Positions 639 through 8,343 of a stretch of 64,000 nucleotides of DNA are shown here, piece by piece; position 1 is the stretch's first letter; every line of letters starts with the position of its first letter. Below the pieces are notes generated by a model. The model was given only the letters and a program-made list of their open reading frames with translations, had not been told where the DNA came from and made no database searches. This stretch comes from a virus (Duplodnaviria > Caudoviricetes). The stretch covers positions 192,001 to 256,000 of the IMG/VR virus record IMGVR_UViG_3300037851_000141; one strand, 5' to 3'. A program made the translations under genes and the position numbers.

Positions 639-1979
639 ATGCCCACTTTTTCGATAAAACACATTCTGGATGAAGCATTTGGTCGTACTGTTGATGACTT
701 AAATGCTAAACTTGTTCAATTAGCTAAAACCTGGGGTGGTAAAGTATATATTGTTGGTGGTGCCGTTCGTGATGAATTGATGGGCATTAAACCTAAAGAT
801 ATTGATTACCTTGTCACTAAAATTGAATCATCTGATCTTGCTAAAAAACTACAAAATATTCTTCCTGGTGCCAAGGTAAATGAAGTAGGTAAATCTTTTG
901 GTATCATAAAACTTGTTGTTGGTGATGATGAATATGATTTTGCTATTCCAAGAGCCGATGTTGATAGAGATAATGTAAAAACTGATCCAAATATCCCGGT
1001 TGAACAAGATTTATTGAGAAGAGACATAACAATAAATTCTATGGCTAAGGATGTTGAAACTGGAGAAATAATATCTGCTTTTGGTGAAGATGGCGTTGCT
1101 GATGTTAAGAATAAGATAATAAAAGCAACAGGCGACCCAAAACAGAGATTTAAGGAAGATCCGTTAAGGATGTTAAGGTGTATACAATTTTCTGCTCGTT
1201 TTGGATTTGATATTGAACCAAACACATTTAAAGCAATTCAAGAACTTAAAGATGATTTCAATCAATTATCAGTAGAACGATTTAGAGACGAATTCTATAA
1301 AGGTTGGACTAAAGGTAATAAAGACACCACGAAATTCTTACAACTATTAGTGGATACTGGTGTAGGTAATCTCTTATTTGGTTCAGATTTTAAGCCTATT
1401 GCCATTGATATAAAGAATAAAGATCCAGAGTCAGCATTCAATGCGCAATATATAGCAATGTTCCTTAATGGCGGCGACCCAACCAGATTAAGCAACTTTA
1501 ACTATGATCATGATTTGATTTTTGTTGCTCGACTCTTAAAATCTTTTATTGATAATGGTATTGATTGGAATGAATTGAAAAAGTTATATAAACATGGAGA
1601 TTTATTCCCAATTATTGCTGAAGCTTTTTATCTTATTGATCCTAAATTGGGTGATAAACTAAAGAGTATGTTATCAAAACCTCTTATACAACGGTTAAAT
1701 AAATCTCGTTGGAATATATGGGAGTTGCCGATTCAAGGTGGAGAAATACTTGAAATAATGGGTGGTAAAATACAAAATAAATCAATACCAGTTGTTATAC
1801 AGAAACTCATAAAAGCCTATCAAAATGGAGAAATAGCAATAAATCCAGATAATGAAGATGAATCTAAAGAACTTGCTAAAAAATATATATCAACTGTACT
1901 GGTAAACGATAAAGATATAAAAGAATCAGATCGTCTTGGTATATTTGAATCAAGAATCTTCAACATTTTCAACCGATAA
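639..1979 (+). CDS. cca: CCA-adding tRNA nucleotidyltransferase (class II)
   Basis: VYIVGGAVRD..KDIDY (DxD), DLLRRDITINSMA, RFKEDPLRMLRCIQFSARFGF. Confidence 0.9.
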   Translation: MPTFSIKHILDEAFGRTVDDLNAKLVQLAKTWGGKVYIVGGAVRDELMGIKPKDIDYLVTKIESSDLAKKLQNILPGAKVNEVGKSFGIIKLVVGDDEYDFAIPRADVDRDNVKTDPNIPVEQDLLRRDITINSMAKDVETGEIISAFGEDGVADVKNKIIKATGDPKQRFKEDPLRMLRCIQFSARFGFDIEPNTFKAIQELKDDFNQLSVERFRDEFYKGWTKGNKDTTKFLQLLVDTGVGNLLFGSDFKPIAIDIKNKDPESAFNAQYIAMFLNGGDPTRLSNFNYDHDLIFVARLLKSFIDNGIDWNELKKLYKHGDLFPIIAEAFYLIDPKLGDKLKSMLSKPLIQRLNKSRWNIWELPIQGGEILEIMGGKIQNKSIPVVIQKLIKAYQNGEIAINPDNEDESKELAKKYISTVLVNDKDIKESDRLGIFESRIFNIFNR

Positions 1980-3037: not shown

Positions 3038-3565
3038 ATGGTCCCTTTTCAACAACCTGATCAAAAACAGGCTATGATTAATGAACGAATCTCAGCCAGA
3101 GAAGTCTTATTAATCTCTTCAACCGGCGAGAAGCTTGGAATAATAAATACCAAGGAAGCACTACAAAAAGCAAAAAATGATGGTTTAGATTTGGTTCTTG
3201 TAGCCGAAACATCTAAGCCACCAGTTTGTAAAATAATGGATTATAACAAACTTATTTACGAACAAAAGAAACGCGAAAAGAAAAATGAATCACATGGTAA
3301 AGTCGAGATAAAAGAACTCCGTTTCGGCATCTGTATTCAAGACCATGATCTACAAATTAAGGCTAAACAAGCAAAAGAATTCTTGGAAAAGGGTTGGAGA
3401 GTCAAGTTATCAGTTCAATTCTCTGGTCGCGAAAAACAACATCCCGAATTAGGTATTGATGTCCTAAATCGTTTTATCAAGTTTGTTGGCGAAGATAAAT
3501 CAAAATTCGAGAACCAACCAAGACTTGAGGGACGATACATGAATACATACTTGCTCAAAAAATAA
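3038..3565 (+). CDS. infC: Translation initiation factor IF-3
   Basis: INERISAREVLLI, LDLVLVAETSKPPVCKIMDY, KELRFG..HDLQIKAKQAKEFLEKG..VKLSVQFSGRE, PRLEGRYM. Confidence 0.95.
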   Translation: MVPFQQPDQKQAMINERISAREVLLISSTGEKLGIINTKEALQKAKNDGLDLVLVAETSKPPVCKIMDYNKLIYEQKKREKKNESHGKVEIKELRFGICIQDHDLQIKAKQAKEFLEKGWRVKLSVQFSGREKQHPELGIDVLNRFIKFVGEDKSKFENQPRLEGRYMNTYLLKK

Positions 3566-4930: not shown

Positions 4931-5722
4931 ATGGACATGCACTTTCAATCCGTAGTCGTAACTCTCGTTGGAGCCGACAATAAACCCTTTAGGGAATATG
5001 ATCCACACCAAGTAGAAAATGGCAGACGTTGTAATCTGATTATGCCATTTGATACTGAATATAAGGTTTTCGTTAAGAATCTCGCAGACCGTAGAATTAA
5101 ACTTGATATTGAAGTTGATGGAACTAATGTATCAGGTAAAGGTCTTATTATTGGTTCTAAAGAAAATGCCTATATTGAACGATTTGTTGATGCGGCTCGT
5201 AAATTCAAGTTTGTAAAGGCTCAAGGTGCTGGCGCAAACCCAAATGTAGCCGATCCAACAAGTCCTGAAAATGGTATAGTGAAAATCCGAGTAGCCAAAG
5301 AGAAACAAGCTACATTAAATTGGAATTATTATTACAATCAGCCTTCAATATGGACTTCCCCAATAAATCCATATCCACTAAATCCAGAAATTATTTGTTA
5401 TGGGTCACAGTCAAATCCGACAGGAACACCAATATCATGTTCATATAAAGGTGGTGCTGGAGATAATATAAAACGAGGGTTCAGCACCAAATCAATGAGT
5501 TTTAGTAGTTTGGCATCTGCTGAGACACAACCAAAGACTGATGTTGGTGCTACTGTAGAAGGTAATAATAGTGGTCAATCTTTCGGCACAACTTACTGGA
5601 ATGGTGATGACGGAGATTCAATGGTATTTACGTTTTATGTTCGTGGCGTCGAGAATGGAATAACACCAGAAGAACAACGTCAATATGAAGAATACCTGCG
5701 TCTCAAAGAAAAATTTGGTTGA
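4931..5722 (+). CDS. Hypothetical protein
   Basis: 263-aa ORF with AAGGAAGG RBS; no recognisable catalytic motif. Confidence 0.7.
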   Translation: MDMHFQSVVVTLVGADNKPFREYDPHQVENGRRCNLIMPFDTEYKVFVKNLADRRIKLDIEVDGTNVSGKGLIIGSKENAYIERFVDAARKFKFVKAQGAGANPNVADPTSPENGIVKIRVAKEKQATLNWNYYYNQPSIWTSPINPYPLNPEIICYGSQSNPTGTPISCSYKGGAGDNIKRGFSTKSMSFSSLASAETQPKTDVGATVEGNNSGQSFGTTYWNGDDGDSMVFTFYVRGVENGITPEEQRQYEEYLRLKEKFG

Positions 5723-5746
5723 CAAATAGAAAAATGTTGGTAAAAT
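5719..5746 (+). promoter_or_regulatory. Sigma70-type promoter upstream of tRNA cluster
   Basis: TTGACA (5719-5724), 16-nt spacer, TAAAAT (5741-5746). Confidence 0.6.
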
Positions 5747-5790
5747 AGGGGCGTATCAGATATAAATCACTTGGTACGCCTCTTTTACAT

Positions 5791-5907
5791 GCTGGTTTAG
5801 CTCAGGGGTAGAGCAGTTGTTTTGCTGGAATATAGGAAAGCAAGACGGTTCGAGTCCGTCATTCTGGAATAAACAACAGGTCGGGGGTTCAAATCCCTCA
5901 ACCAGCA
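5791..5907 (+). tRNA. tRNA-Thr(UGU) with 45-nt insertion (5825-5869) inside the anticodon; no encoded CCA
   Basis: Acceptor GCTGGTT/AACCAGC+A, D-arm GCTC/GAGC, anticodon stem GTTGT/ACAAC, T-arm GGGGG-TTCAAAT-CCCTC. Removing the insert gives loop TT-TGT-AA. Confidence 0.85.
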
Positions 5908-5921
5908 TTATAAATAATACT

Positions 5922-6260
5922 ATGAACATAAACCATATCTTTGACAACTTTATAGAAACTGGAAAAATGAGTGTTGATGATGCTAAATTGTTTCTTGACC
6001 AAATCTTAGAGTTCACCAAAGGTCAAGAATTTACAAGTGTCATTGATGTTTATTCTTTTTTAGTTGAACATGGTTTGGTTGAAGATAAACTAAAATTCCA
6101 TGAGCCAACTAAAAGAATGTATCTTGATTCGTCTAAAGCACATAAGGTAATAAGATTCTTTAAGTCATTGGATCTTATTGAATATACAGACGAAGATTTT
6201 GAGGACTTCAAGAAAAAAGTACTTGACTCTGAAACATCTCTTGGTAAAATACTACCATGA
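5922..6260 (+). CDS. Hypothetical protein (true start 5922; the longer track ORF runs through the tRNA)
   Basis: TATAAATA at 5909-5916 immediately upstream of ATG. Confidence 0.65.
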   Translation: MNINHIFDNFIETGKMSVDDAKLFLDQILEFTKGQEFTSVIDVYSFLVEHGLVEDKLKFHEPTKRMYLDSSKAHKVIRFFKSLDLIEYTDEDFEDFKKKVLDSETSLGKILP

Positions 6261-6351
6261 GACATAAACATGAGTCAAATCATCTTTTATCTATCTGAGT
6301 GCGGACCCTAAACAGGTCGTTGGCACACGAATTGACAAGTATATATCGTAC

Positions 6352-6426
6352 TGCGGGATGGTGTAACGGTTAGCATAGCGGCCTCATAAGCCGCAGATTT
6401 AGGTTCAAATCCTGATCCCGCCACCA
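6352..6426 (+). tRNA. tRNA-Met(CAU), initiator-like
   Basis: TGCGGGA/TCCCGCC with 1:72 mismatch, GCGGC-CTCATAA-GCCGC, TTCAAAT T-loop, encoded ACCA. Confidence 0.9.
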
Positions 6427-6428
6427 AT

Positions 6429-6490
6429 AATCCGAATGCTGATAAGATTACATATCATTAAAAACCAATCTTATCAAATTTTGTCGGATT
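6429..6490 (+). ncRNA. Structured repeat element copy 1 (CGA-ATGC...TACAT...TTTTG-TCG scaffold)
   Basis: AATCCGA/TCGGATT outer stem, TGATAAGATT/AATCTTATCA inner stem. Confidence 0.65.
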
Positions 6491-6503
6491 TTATTTCTGA
6501 GTT

Positions 6504-6575
6504 AATACCGAATGCTTGTTGAGAGTACATTTCCTTGTAAGAAACCAACCCCTCTCAACCACTTTTGTCGGTATT
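6504..6575 (+). ncRNA. Structured repeat element copy 2
   Basis: AATACCGA/TCGGTATT, GTTGAGAG/CTCTCAAC; apical TTTC-CTTGTAA-GAAA hairpin. Confidence 0.65.
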
Positions 6576-6583
6576 TTTCTTTA

Positions 6584-6694
6584 TGAGGGTTCGAATTCAA
6601 GTTGCTGGTGGAATTCCCACGACCTACCTACCAGTAGTAAAGAGCTTGATAGTAGAATAGCTAAGCGCGGCCAGTCGTGACCTCAAAACTGGCG
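6584..6694 (+). ncRNA. Unassigned structured RNA candidate
   Basis: Manual stems TCAAGTT/AGCTTGA, GCTGGTGG/CTACCAGT, GCCAGT/ACTGGC; possible long-range TGAGG/CCTCA. Confidence 0.35.
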
Positions 6695-6698
6695 TTAC

Positions 6699-6776
6699 GC
6701 TCTCATCGTCTAGCCCGGTTAGGACATTTGGTTTTCATCCAAAAAACGTGGAGTTCAAATCTCCCTGAGAGTACCA
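6699..6776 (+). tRNA. tRNA-Glu(UUC)
   Basis: GCTCTCA/TGAGAGT, TTTGG-TTTTCAT-CCAAA, TTCAAAT T-loop, encoded ACCA. Confidence 0.9.
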
Positions 6777-6778
6777 AT

Positions 6779-6841
6779 GAAGCGAATGCAGATAAGATTA
6801 CATTCTGGAAAAAATAAAATCTTATCAAATTTTGTCGCTTC
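6779..6841 (+). ncRNA. Structured repeat element copy 3
   Basis: GAAGCGA/TCGCTTC, GATAAGATT/AATCTTATC. Confidence 0.65.
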
Positions 6842-6847
6842 TTATAT

Positions 6848-6953
6848 GCTGCGTTGACAGATCGGTTATGTGCTAGCCTTCCCGAGAAAAGGAGCCTAAA
6901 GCTTTAATTCTCGACCAAAGCTAGAAAGGCGGGTTCGATTCCCGCACGCGGCT
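6848..6953 (+). tRNA. tRNA-Gly(UCC) with 35-nt insertion (6883-6917) after the anticodon; no encoded CCA
   Basis: GCTGCGT/ACGCGGC+U73, anticodon stem CTAGC/GCTAG, GCGGG-TTCGATT-CCCGC. Removing the insert gives CT-TCC-AA. Confidence 0.85.
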
Positions 6954-7026
6954 TAGATAGTTTAGTGTGGTGTTTTTTGAGAAATAAGAACGATTGGCTG
7001 GTCGGAAGCTACCAAGAGTTAGTGAT

Positions 7027-8343
7027 TTAGTTATCAACTGTTATCACTTTGGTTGTTGGGTCAAGATGGACTCTAAGCTCATCTCCGTCCAGAGTATAGA
7101 AACCAGTTTCCTTCCAGTAGAAACCCTTCCTATTTAACTCTAACTTACGTAATTTGGGAGGTATGTCGGGTAAGGTCTGTTCGTGGTTGCACGACGCATT
7201 ATAGTCTGCGTCGTCAGAAAAGCCACAACCTCGACAGATGTAAATCTTACCCTTCCTATTACTCTTACGTACCAATCCGCAACAACTACACCGTTGACTT
7301 CTGTAAGTACAAGACTGTAAAGTGAAGTGGACCCCAGCCTCTTCACAGCGGCTACTTACTTTGTCTCTGATGAGTGTGTTTGTCCAGTGGGACATCTTAC
7401 GACTCGTTCTACGACCATAGTTTATGTTATTTATCTCTTCCAACTTTAGATGCTTGATGTTCATTAAGTTTAGTTGGTTGACTGACCAATTAATGAAGTT
7501 CTCACGGTGAGATTGGGCTTTAAGGAAGGCTCGACTTCCTTTACGTTTGGCACTCAATTTATCTATAATAGAATCTAATGAGTGTCCATGAGAGTCTGTC
7601 TTTGGTGTTGTTTGTCTGTCCGACAACGATATTATTGTCAATTTACCTTGGTCAGCACCAACATCAACACCTTTGGTCTTAGGTGGAACATCTTTTTCCC
7701 ACCGTAGATTTACGAAGTTGGTTCCGATGAGGAACGAGTTGAGCATCTTCCAATCAGCATATTTTGAGTTATGTTTGTGGAATCTTATAGGTAGTTTGAT
7801 ATGACCATATTCATCACCGATACATTTGAGTCTGAGGACTCCGTTGAAATATGATGTATTTTGGGTTGGTTCCCAATCTATACATTTGCTTGATAATTCT
7901 GGGTTGATATTACTAAGATCAGGCTTTAGAGCCTGGAATTTCTGTAGATTTTGATATAGTCTCTCATTATAAACTCCTTCATCACAGAGTTTATTGAATA
8001 CCCATAATCTTCGTCTACGGACTTCCGTAGTTGCTGATATACATCCAGCAACCTGAGTTACCAGAGAGGATAATGCTCGGGCTGATAGTGGAGTTTGAAT
8101 ACCAAACAATTTGTAATCTATGAAACTTGGAGTTTCAAGGTTATCATCTTTGATAGAGAACTGATGCTCTGTAGATACTCCAGTTTCTTTATTTGTAGTA
8201 GTCCACTTGTATCCATGTTCCCAAATAAGGTCAACTATGAGTTGCCCAACTCTACGATACTCGGCAATAAACTTGTTCAACTTGTCAAGTTTATTCTTAT
8301 TTGTATCTTTAAGAGAATGAGAAGTTGACCGTATAGTAGTCAT
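7027..8343 (-). CDS. tnpB: TnpB/Cas12f-like RNA-guided RuvC endonuclease
   Basis: VGADQG (RuvC I), KLEEIN (RuvC II), SQRCSCCG..YICRGCGFSDDADYNAS (Zn finger + RuvC III). Confidence 0.85.
   Translation of the reverse strand: MTTIRSTSHSLKDTNKNKLDKLNKFIAEYRRVGQLIVDLIWEHGYKWTTTNKETGVSTEHQFSIKDDNLETPSFIDYKLFGIQTPLSARALSSLVTQVAGCISATTEVRRRRLWVFNKLCDEGVYNERLYQNLQKFQALKPDLSNINPELSSKCIDWEPTQNTSYFNGVLRLKCIGDEYGHIKLPIRFHKHNSKYADWKMLNSFLIGTNFVNLRWEKDVPPKTKGVDVGADQGKLTIISLSDRQTTPKTDSHGHSLDSIIDKLSAKRKGSRAFLKAQSHRENFINWSVNQLNLMNIKHLKLEEINNINYGRRTSRKMSHWTNTLIRDKVSSRCEEAGVHFTLQSCTYRSQRCSCCGLVRKSNRKGKIYICRGCGFSDDADYNASCNHEQTLPDIPPKLRKLELNRKGFYWKETGFYTLDGDELRVHLDPTTKVITVDN

Follow-up and report, generated by a model that had tools for sequence, protein, structure and literature searches.

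A hairpin ending in ACCA as a candidate intron in the tRNA-Gly(UCC) gene of a 332-kb freshwater phage

The tRNA-Gly(UCC) gene of a 332-kb phage is interrupted in its anticodon loop by a 35-nt insert that resembles the end of a tRNA. The gene occupies positions 6848-6953 of a 64,000-nt stretch of DNA (hereafter the window), which comprises bases 192001-256000 of the IMG/VR record IMGVR_UViG_3300037851_000141 (331,849 bp, approximately 35% G+C, estimated to be 92% complete), assembled from a freshwater metagenome. In genome coordinates the gene spans 198848-198953. Judged from the DNA alone, this is a functional-looking tRNA-Gly(UCC) gene with a 35-nt candidate intron between C36 and A37, and the candidate intron is a hairpin-only variant, without T arm, of a set of phage tRNA inserts shaped like tRNA ends. 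The best explanation we can give for these features is that the insert would be spliced out by host RNase P and a host endonuclease cutting past CCA, with the phage RNA ligases Rnl1 or Rnl2 joining the halves; we regard this explanation as equally able to prove right or wrong.

The interrupted gene was recovered by ARAGORN with introns allowed, and the Rfam tRNA model covers it entirely at 42.4 bits; with default settings ARAGORN missed it. The 5' exon (tRNA positions 1-36) holds the acceptor strand GCTGCGT, a 3-bp D stem, the anticodon-stem strand CTAGC (6873-6877), C32, U33 and the anticodon U34 C35 C36 (6880-6882). The 3' exon (positions 37-73) continues with A37 and A38, the anticodon-stem strand GCTAG, a 4-nt variable loop, the T arm GCGGG-TTCGATT-CCCGC, the acceptor strand ACGCGGC and U73. 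No CCA is encoded at the 3' end, where TAG comes next. The two anticodon-stem strands are separated by 42 nt instead of the usual 7, and removal of 6883-6917 leaves a 71-nt cloverleaf in which every pair is standard and the loop reads CTTCCAA. Bacterial glycine identity depends on U73, G1:C72 and C2:G71, all of which are present in the outer tRNA, with U3-G70 in place of G3:C70. The closest match to the spliced form among 226 phage tRNAs compared is likewise a Gly(UCC). All features of a bacterial-type tRNA-Gly(UCC) are found together (cloverleaf, 7-nt loop, UCC and the three identity elements). The interrupted gene is the sole tRNA-Gly of the phage, in which GGA makes up 31% of the glycine codons.

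The insert consists of an outer stem, CGAGAA (6883-6888) with TTCTCG (6908-6913), an internal loop of AA (6889-90) against AA (6906-07), and an inner stem, GGAGC (6891-95) with GCTTT (6901-05), which includes two G-U pairs. An apical loop CTAAA (6896-6900) closes the hairpin, and an unpaired tail ACCA (6914-17) abuts A37. This is the fold that the initial annotation had given, and it recurs in the fold of the whole precursor as well as in that of the 35-mer. Folded alone, the insert has a minimum free energy of -11.5 kcal/mol (z = -3.76), and 1 of 200 shuffled sequences was equally stable. In the minimum free energy and the centroid structure of the precursor alike, the two junctions fall in unpaired stretches, of 5 nt and 6 nt, that flank an autonomous hairpin. 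The 5' boundary, C6883, is the first paired base of the insert helix. The insert has neither a T-loop motif nor a GG-containing linker and hence does not qualify as a tRNA top half.

The boundaries of the insert can be read from uninterrupted homologues. The best match to the spliced tRNA-Gly is an uninterrupted tRNA-Gly(UCC) in contig G001, which has the same odd D arm, TTGACAGA..GG.TTATGTGC, and a pattern built from this D arm retrieved a second uninterrupted homologue in L133. The MAFFT alignment with these two genes (L117:9977-10048:- and L133:6756-6829:-) contains one clean gap of 35 nt that coincides with 6883-6917, and the loop is CTTCCAA in all three genes. The assertion that ACCA lies exactly at the 3' boundary that restores CT-TCC-AA is therefore borne out by genes without the insert. 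The cloverleaf is 100% paired across the three homologues with six pairs changed on both sides, while sliding the 3' partners by 1-3 columns as a control lowered pairing to 27-43%. The clean gap and the six compensatory pairs fix the boundaries at the DNA level and show that the gene is not decaying; complete pairing together with these changes shows the interrupted copy to be constrained in the same way as the intact copies. The insert itself has no detectable relatives. A blastn-short search against 2.3 Mb of phage DNA gave no second copy in this or other genomes, and a pattern derived from the insert gave a single chance match in coding DNA in IMG/VR. A search of IMG/VR for interrupted homologues with CTAGCCTTCC-N20-50-AAGCTAG returned 35 loci, all of them chance matches in non-tRNA sequence, and a metagenome scan for the tRNA-Gly family found G001 only, again.

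The exact register of excision matters for the meaning of the gene. As had been pointed out from the sequence, a shift by one nucleotide gives the anticodon UCA: removal of 6882-6916 yields CTTCAAA, and ARAGORN with the intron option reports just this form, tRNA-SeC(tca) i(34,35). A weak Rfam match to tRNA-Sec points the same way (20.5 bits, with the threshold at 47), and the product would be an opal suppressor or selenocysteine-like tRNA. We consider this reading scarcely credible. TGA is the most frequent stop codon of the phage (128 of 268 open reading frames (ORFs)), which by itself makes a UCA anticodon very unlikely, and the standard code is in use, with ORFs of at least 120 aa starting at ATG spanning 80% of the genome. 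Moreover, the homologues have CTTCCAA, U73, G1:C72 and C2:G71 mark the tRNA as Gly, and the boundary rule described below gives UCC. A CCA anticodon for the same gene was ruled out by the homologues and the stop-codon usage. The predicted spliced junction reads CUAGCCUUCCAAGCUAG; the spliced form would contain CTAGCCTTCCAAGCTAG and the form shifted by one base CTAGCCTTCAAAGCTAG. ARAGORN with the intron option also miscalled sister genes of the tRNA-Gly, as Pro, Ile and Trp, and in huge phages calls of this kind could be taken as signs of suppressor tRNAs or of recoded stop codons.

The tRNA-Gly is one of four interrupted tRNAs found in this phage genome by ARAGORN with introns allowed. We compared them in a register termed +1-to-NCCA, in which an insert is taken to run from the base that opens its terminal helix to the end of NCCA. 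This register restores the loops CUUUGGA, a Gln UUG with U1:A72 interrupted at 34/35, CUUCCAA, the Gly interrupted at 36/37, and CUUCUAA, an Arg UCU also interrupted at 36/37. The Pro(UGG) and Trp(CCA)/UCA calls that ARAGORN gave for the sister genes were dropped, as the Gln(UUG) and Arg(UCU) obtained in this register fit the outer tRNAs. The Gln, Arg and Thr inserts are tRNA top halves: in each, a stem of 7 bp is joined through a linker with ATAGGAA to a T arm whose loop has the form TTCRANT.

The fourth gene, tRNA-Thr(UGU), lies in the same transcription unit as the tRNA-Gly, with a promoter-like site at 5719-5746, and its nested mini-tRNA is built of a 7-bp stem, an ATAGGAAAGCAA linker, a T arm and the tail AA. 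A contig of a relative (X7) matches the flanks nearly perfectly and lacks the insert, joining 5824 to 5870 with the loop TTTGTAA, so that the parallel claimed for the 5' boundaries of the Thr and Gly inserts is seen directly in an intron-less allele. Another relative (X2, approximately 95% identity) retains the insert with three substitutions, all of which preserve pairing. The tRNA-Thr insert is thus polymorphic in presence and absence among close relatives. The initial annotation further held that the Gly and Thr inserts share one architecture and are removed by one mechanism. The common start at the helix base, +1, stands; the Thr insert has a T arm and ends in AA instead of CCA, its 3' boundary falls after N74, and a single mechanism would need tolerance at this end.

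A distant relative, represented by the contig G001 (a 113-kb fragment with 41% G+C), carries four interrupted tRNAs that also follow the +1-to-NCCA rule: Gln UUG, Asn GUU, Pro UGG (with G37) and Arg UCU. Its Gln insert is clearly homologous to that of the present phage and is sited one base further along. For the Asn GUU gene, ARAGORN's Tyr call is ruled out by the outer tRNA, which is of class I with U1:A72 and G73. The Pro and Arg inserts of G001 are bare hairpins of 22-23 nt (6-7 bp with a 4-6-nt loop) followed by GCCA, i.e., the same reduced design as the Gly insert. Taken over both genomes, NCCA forms the last four insert bases exactly where the 7-nt loop is restored in 7 of 8 interrupted tRNAs, tRNA-Thr being the exception, and the restored anticodon agrees with the identity of the outer tRNA in 7 of 8. 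With a chance of about 1% per case, such agreement is not a coincidence. The insert site varies by gene (34/35, 35/36 or 36/37), which indicates that it is the insert, rather than the outer tRNA, that sets the cut sites. The only features common to the eight inserts are a helix that starts from the first insert base and, in seven, a single-stranded terminal NCCA.

These comparisons also bear on whether the insert is removed at all. The uninterrupted Gly homologues and the intron-less Thr allele in a close relative indicate that the tRNA does not need the insert, and the Gly insert is single-copy and without relatives, as might be expected if it were a selfish or accidental insertion that stays in, leaving a dispensable tRNA-Gly gene inactivated or yielding tRNA halves only. 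This reading is unlikely, since the exons are undecayed, with a fully paired cloverleaf and intact identity elements, and since random insertions would not all start at a helix base and place NCCA at the 7-nt-loop register in 7 of 8 cases. The substitutions in the Thr insert keep its pairing. Retention would also silence all four interrupted tRNAs, which serve frequent codons and of which three have no second copy in the phage; besides GGA, they read CAA (81%), AGA (39%) and ACA (35%), all of them frequent codons ending in A.

If the insert is excised, the halves have to be sealed, and the phage encodes two candidate enzymes. Rnl1 (403 aa, PF09511) and a T4-type Rnl2 (PF09414 with T4_Rnl2_C) were identified by Pfam, and G001 likewise encodes an Rnl1, 45% identical to that of this phage, together with two genes of the Rnl2 family. 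RtcB was not found in the phage, and the splicing endonuclease EndA (PF01974) is absent from it, occurring among 14 control genomes in the 4 archaea only. Neither an RNase P RNA (Rfam, whole genome) nor an RNase Z-like gene was found in the phage either; therefore, the cuts would fall to host enzymes. A phosphatase domain of the T4 Pnkp type was not found, the nearest candidate being a 165-aa AAA_33 kinase-like ORF, and this gives a weak hint toward ends that need no healing.

In the proposed pathway, host RNase P, directed by residue -1 and by the RCCA tail, would first cut between C36 and C+1, where the helix begins, and leave the 5' half with a 3'-OH. A host endonuclease would then cut CGACCA↓AA just past CCA, so that the 3' half would start with a 5'-phosphate; this could be RNase E, which acts in this way on proK, proL and proM of E. 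coli, or else one of the RNase Z enzymes whose cut falls behind CCA. Halves with 3'-OH and 5'-phosphate ends would need no healing before an ATP-dependent RNA ligase could join them. The tRNA body would hold the halves together until they are sealed into the loop CUUCCAA by one of the phage ligases, Rnl2 or the anticodon-loop ligase Rnl1. Finally, the outer 3' end would be trimmed and receive its CCA from the phage or host CCA-adding enzyme; as the outer tRNA-Gly encodes no CCA, the enzyme encoded by the phage at 639-1979 would be needed here.

The first cut has precedent in model substrates. Bacterial RNase P cleaves bare hairpins, mainly through residue -1 and the contact of the 3' RCCA with RNase P RNA (PMC3874170). 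In the E. coli enzyme these contacts are N-1/A248 and RCCA, and hairpins with C-1/A73 are about as good as those with U-1/A73 (PMC3874170). By its sequence, the Gly insert appears to match such hairpin substrates, with 6+5 bp, A73-CCA and C-1. The role of RCCA as an RNase P determinant on hairpins would explain why all hairpin-only inserts carry CCA, whereas the Thr insert may do without it since its full T arm and GG linker could contact the specificity domain of RNase P. For the second cut, a single cleavage of GACCA↓AA by RNase E, exactly past CCA, matures the 3' end of the proline tRNAs proK, proL and proM of E. coli, a precision that the authors credit to C1:G72 (PMC5291269). At its 3' junction the Gly insert reads CGACCA↓AA, with C1:G72 and A73. 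The cut of Thermotoga maritima RNase Z also falls after CCA (PMC3161902).

Several points weigh against the proposed pathway. Searches for RNA runs carrying this DNA listed none, so that splicing is inferred. The phage IF3 is 42-50% identical to proteins from many Bacillota/Mollicutes-like metagenome-assembled genomes, which makes for a weak indication of the host. If the host belongs to the Bacillota, a further difficulty arises, as RNase E is missing from this group and CCA inhibits its RNase Z. There is no single ruler for the 3' boundaries, given the Thr insert, which lacks CCA and ends after N74, and the G72-A73-CCA-A context of precise RNase E cutting occurs in the Gly insert only. Neither a T loop nor an elbow is present in the hairpin, and the AA/AA internal loop may put a kink in its helix. 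The association with ligases comes from two lineages only. A 345-kb phage (G002, 94% complete), with one complex insert of the T-arm type, has no clear Rnl1 or Rnl2, and a complete phage (G004), whose inserts are of another class built as a hairpin with ACAGC, has neither.

Since no known host enzyme accounts for every 3' boundary (CCA tails against the AA tail of Thr), excision and joining could instead be the work of a dedicated phage nuclease, or nuclease-ligase pair, of an unrecognised kind that reads the helix and NCCA. Most ORFs of the 332-kb genome lack a Pfam match. We nevertheless consider such an enzyme improbable. No candidate gene was found; the genes adjoining Rnl1 and Rnl2 include no nuclease candidate, and EndA and RtcB are absent. 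The insert also copies features that are read by universal tRNA-end enzymes and would be needless for a private one.

The conserved CCA end and acceptor-like helix raise another question, namely whether the excised minihelix is itself the selected product, with the tRNA as its scaffold. The initial annotation had suggested a decoy or aminoacylatable minihelix, and a regulator would be a further form of the same idea, which is compatible with splicing. Stand-alone mini-tRNA modules outside tRNAs in other phage contigs (described below) would fit a product of this kind, as would the existence of antiphage toxins that target CCA, e.g., FaRel2, which acts on tRNA-Gly and tRNA-Thr according to a preprint (bioRxiv 10.1101/2024.07.05.602228). 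Selection for the minihelix is quite unlikely, as the helix sequences differ between inserts, the Gly insert is unique, and close relatives manage without an insert. The hairpin, with C1:G72, G2:C71, A3:U70 and A73, holds no recognised synthetase identity set, and nothing supports charging. The need of RNase P on hairpin substrates suffices to explain the CCA (PMC3874170).

Among known systems, the closest in appearance are the tRNA introns of Lak megaphages, which were called 'enigmatic' (Devoto et al., 2019, Nat Microbiol, PMC6784885). These too are short anticodon-loop inserts in phage tRNAs, one of them (in a tRNA-Thr UGU) is tRNA-like, and their presence varies between relatives (PMC6784885). 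The comparison is by description; the Gly insert differs in being a hairpin with ACCA and without T or D arm, in a 332-kb freshwater phage with the standard code. Neither the +1-to-NCCA rule nor a link to Rnl1 and Rnl2 is described for the Lak introns (PMC6784885). A full-text literature search gave no paper describing tRNA splicing of the RNase P/ligase type in phages.

Group I introns sit in tRNA anticodon loops as well, for example in cyanobacterial and plastid tRNA-Leu UAA, in tRNA-fMet and in some phages. Like the inserts described here, they are anticodon-loop introns in bacterial-type tRNAs, with variable insertion sites and mobility. However, group I introns exceed 200 nt and have a P1-P9 core, of which P3-P9 and a G-binding site form the conserved catalytic part, whereas the Gly insert has 35 nt and no such core and therefore cannot self-splice. 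A group I intron was accordingly rejected for this single 35-nt hairpin, which has no match to RF00028 or any other Rfam family. Rfam searches at E<=1 on 5700-7100 and at the gathering threshold genome-wide returned tRNAs, with SNORA40 and tRNA-Sec below threshold at chance level, and neither a group I intron nor a family for the insert. Archaeal and eukaryal tRNA introns are cut by EndA at a bulge-helix-bulge, in which a 4-bp helix with a 3-nt bulge at each end spans both junctions, and joined by RtcB or Trl1. They resemble the Gly insert in that cutting depends on a protein or ribonucleoprotein and is followed by ligation of tRNA halves. They differ in site and ends: 37/38 with 2',3'-cyclic phosphate and 5'-OH, against 36/37 with predicted 3'-OH and 5'-phosphate. 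A bulge-helix-bulge intron was rejected, as both junctions are single-stranded beside an autonomous hairpin, the site is 36/37 and EndA and RtcB are missing.

The sealing step has a counterpart in T4, where Pnkp and Rnl1 repair anticodon-loop breaks made by the nuclease PrrC. There, as proposed here, a phage Rnl1 seals a broken anticodon loop held by the tRNA body; in contrast to the PrrC breaks, those in the tRNA-Gly would be programmed by the insert, made by housekeeping enzymes and left with ends that need no healing. Natural tRNA-like processing signals are known from the t-elements of plant mitochondria and from mascRNA. Together with the RNase P model hairpins, in which a helix with a 3' RCCA directs tRNA-end endonucleases precisely inside a longer RNA (PMC3874170), they share the cutting principle proposed here. 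All of these release RNA ends without re-ligation, whereas the Gly insert sits inside the anticodon loop of another tRNA. The proK, proL and proM transcripts share the local sequence, with C1:G72, A73 and GACCA followed by AA, and cutting after CCA leaves a downstream 5'-phosphate (PMC5291269). In E. coli, RNase E removes a terminator from a complete tRNA in this way, whereas the substrate in the phage would be a hairpin inside another tRNA.

Other phages in our comparison carry anticodon-loop inserts of different build. In G004 (L119-L126; 61050-61174, 63841-63957 and 64062-64178) and in L042 (c82-197 and c2031-2149) the inserts measure 22-50 nt, and the hairpin in each leads into a conserved ..A(A/T)CAGC motif, without NCCA. 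The complete genome of G004 (157 kb) encodes no Rnl1, Rnl2 or RtcB. G002 (L095-L112) has unusual interrupted tRNAs at 239506-239681, 250751-250906, 251753-251905 and 236128-236293. These include a tRNA with a 98-nt insert amounting to nearly a whole tRNA (a candidate Ser gct call by ARAGORN), two tRNA-Thr(UGU) with homologous inserts of about 80 nt (CTACAGA...GGGAGAA...ACGTCCGAAGCGT) and a class II Leu-like tRNA whose 79-nt insert ends in an TATAGGAA/T-arm module. Stand-alone mini-tRNA modules, with a 7-bp stem, an (A)ATATAGGAA linker and a T arm, lie outside tRNA genes in L027, L035, L040/L059, L041, L052 and L058. Some of these stand directly after terminators or directly before ribosome-binding sites, a placement that suggests use as RNA-processing signals.

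The coordinates of the features discussed are collected in Table 1. The window is tightly packed with phage-like ORFs, including IF3, the CCA-adding enzyme, a RecQ-type helicase and a TnpB-like gene. A megablast search of the tRNA cluster against GenBank phages gave no match, and an IMG/VR search for related loci, seeded with the protein of the upstream ORF, gave none. Close to the tRNA-Gly, the TnpB-like ORF ends 73 nt from its 3' end, and the guide RNA region of this ORF would adjoin or overlap the tRNA-Gly on the opposite strand. In the X2 relative, 43 other letters take the place of 6219-6326, just downstream of the 114-aa ORF. The structured hairpin element that recurs between the tRNAs is laid out as CGAATGC, a variable 9-bp stem-loop and TTTTGTCG, with an outer stem that closes it; 6 of its 16 pairs are compensatory, against 0 expected by chance. 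Further copies were not found in the genome and Rfam gave no match; the element may serve the tRNA cluster as a processing signal or may be a small RNA encoded there. Outside the window, the region around genome position 316,550 holds neither a group I intron nor a tRNA in the whole-genome Rfam search at the gathering threshold.

Table 1. Positions of the tRNA-Gly(UCC) gene parts and of other features discussed (window coordinates unless marked as genome).
Feature	Position	Strand	Evidence or remark
tRNA-Gly 5' exon, tRNA positions 1-36	6848..6882	+	Sequence, Rfam, homologue alignment
tRNA-Gly insert (candidate intron), 35 nt	6883..6917	+	Folds; clean gap against uninterrupted homologues
tRNA-Gly 3' exon, tRNA positions 37-73	6918..6953	+	Sequence, homologue alignment
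tRNA-Thr(UGU) with 45-nt nested mini-tRNA (5825-5869)	5791..5907	+	Folds; X7 allele; X2 relative
Rnl1, 403 aa, PF09511	genome 301931-303142	-	Pfam
Rnl2, T4-type, PF09414 + T4_Rnl2_C	genome 283572-284579	-	Pfam
CCA-adding enzyme	639..1979	+	PolyA_pol head and RNA-binding domain
IF3, full-length translation initiation factor	3038-3565	+	Just upstream of the tRNA cluster, like the CCA-adding enzyme
ORF, 114 aa	5916-6260	+	No Pfam match; between interrupted tRNA-Thr and tRNA-Met
Structured hairpin element, three copies	6433-6486, 6509-6570, 6783-6837	+	Between tRNA-Met, tRNA-Glu and tRNA-Gly
TnpB-like ORF, 438 aa	7027-8343	-	Cas12f1-like TNB domain

What the tRNA-Gly insert adds to its class is the minimal form without T arm, the reading of boundaries from uninterrupted homologues, the argument that hairpins need RCCA, and the match of GACCA↓AA to the RNase E precedent. 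Should this route prove true, tRNA splicing in the bacterial world could run on housekeeping RNase P, 3'-end nucleases and a phage RNA ligase, and phage Rnl1 and Rnl2 would have a routine role beyond the repair of nuclease damage. The hairpin-only form reduces the element to a helix and NCCA, and thus to a small substrate that can be tested directly. Collectively, we tentatively propose, while leaning slightly toward doubt, a third way of tRNA splicing in bacteria and phages, in addition to group I self-splicing and the EndA pathway: introns that mimic acceptor ends (a helix with NCCA, the T arm being optional) would be cut by RNase P and RNase E or Z and the exons joined by Rnl1 or Rnl2, with the 35-nt hairpin and the 22-23-nt hairpins of G001 as the minimal sufficient element.

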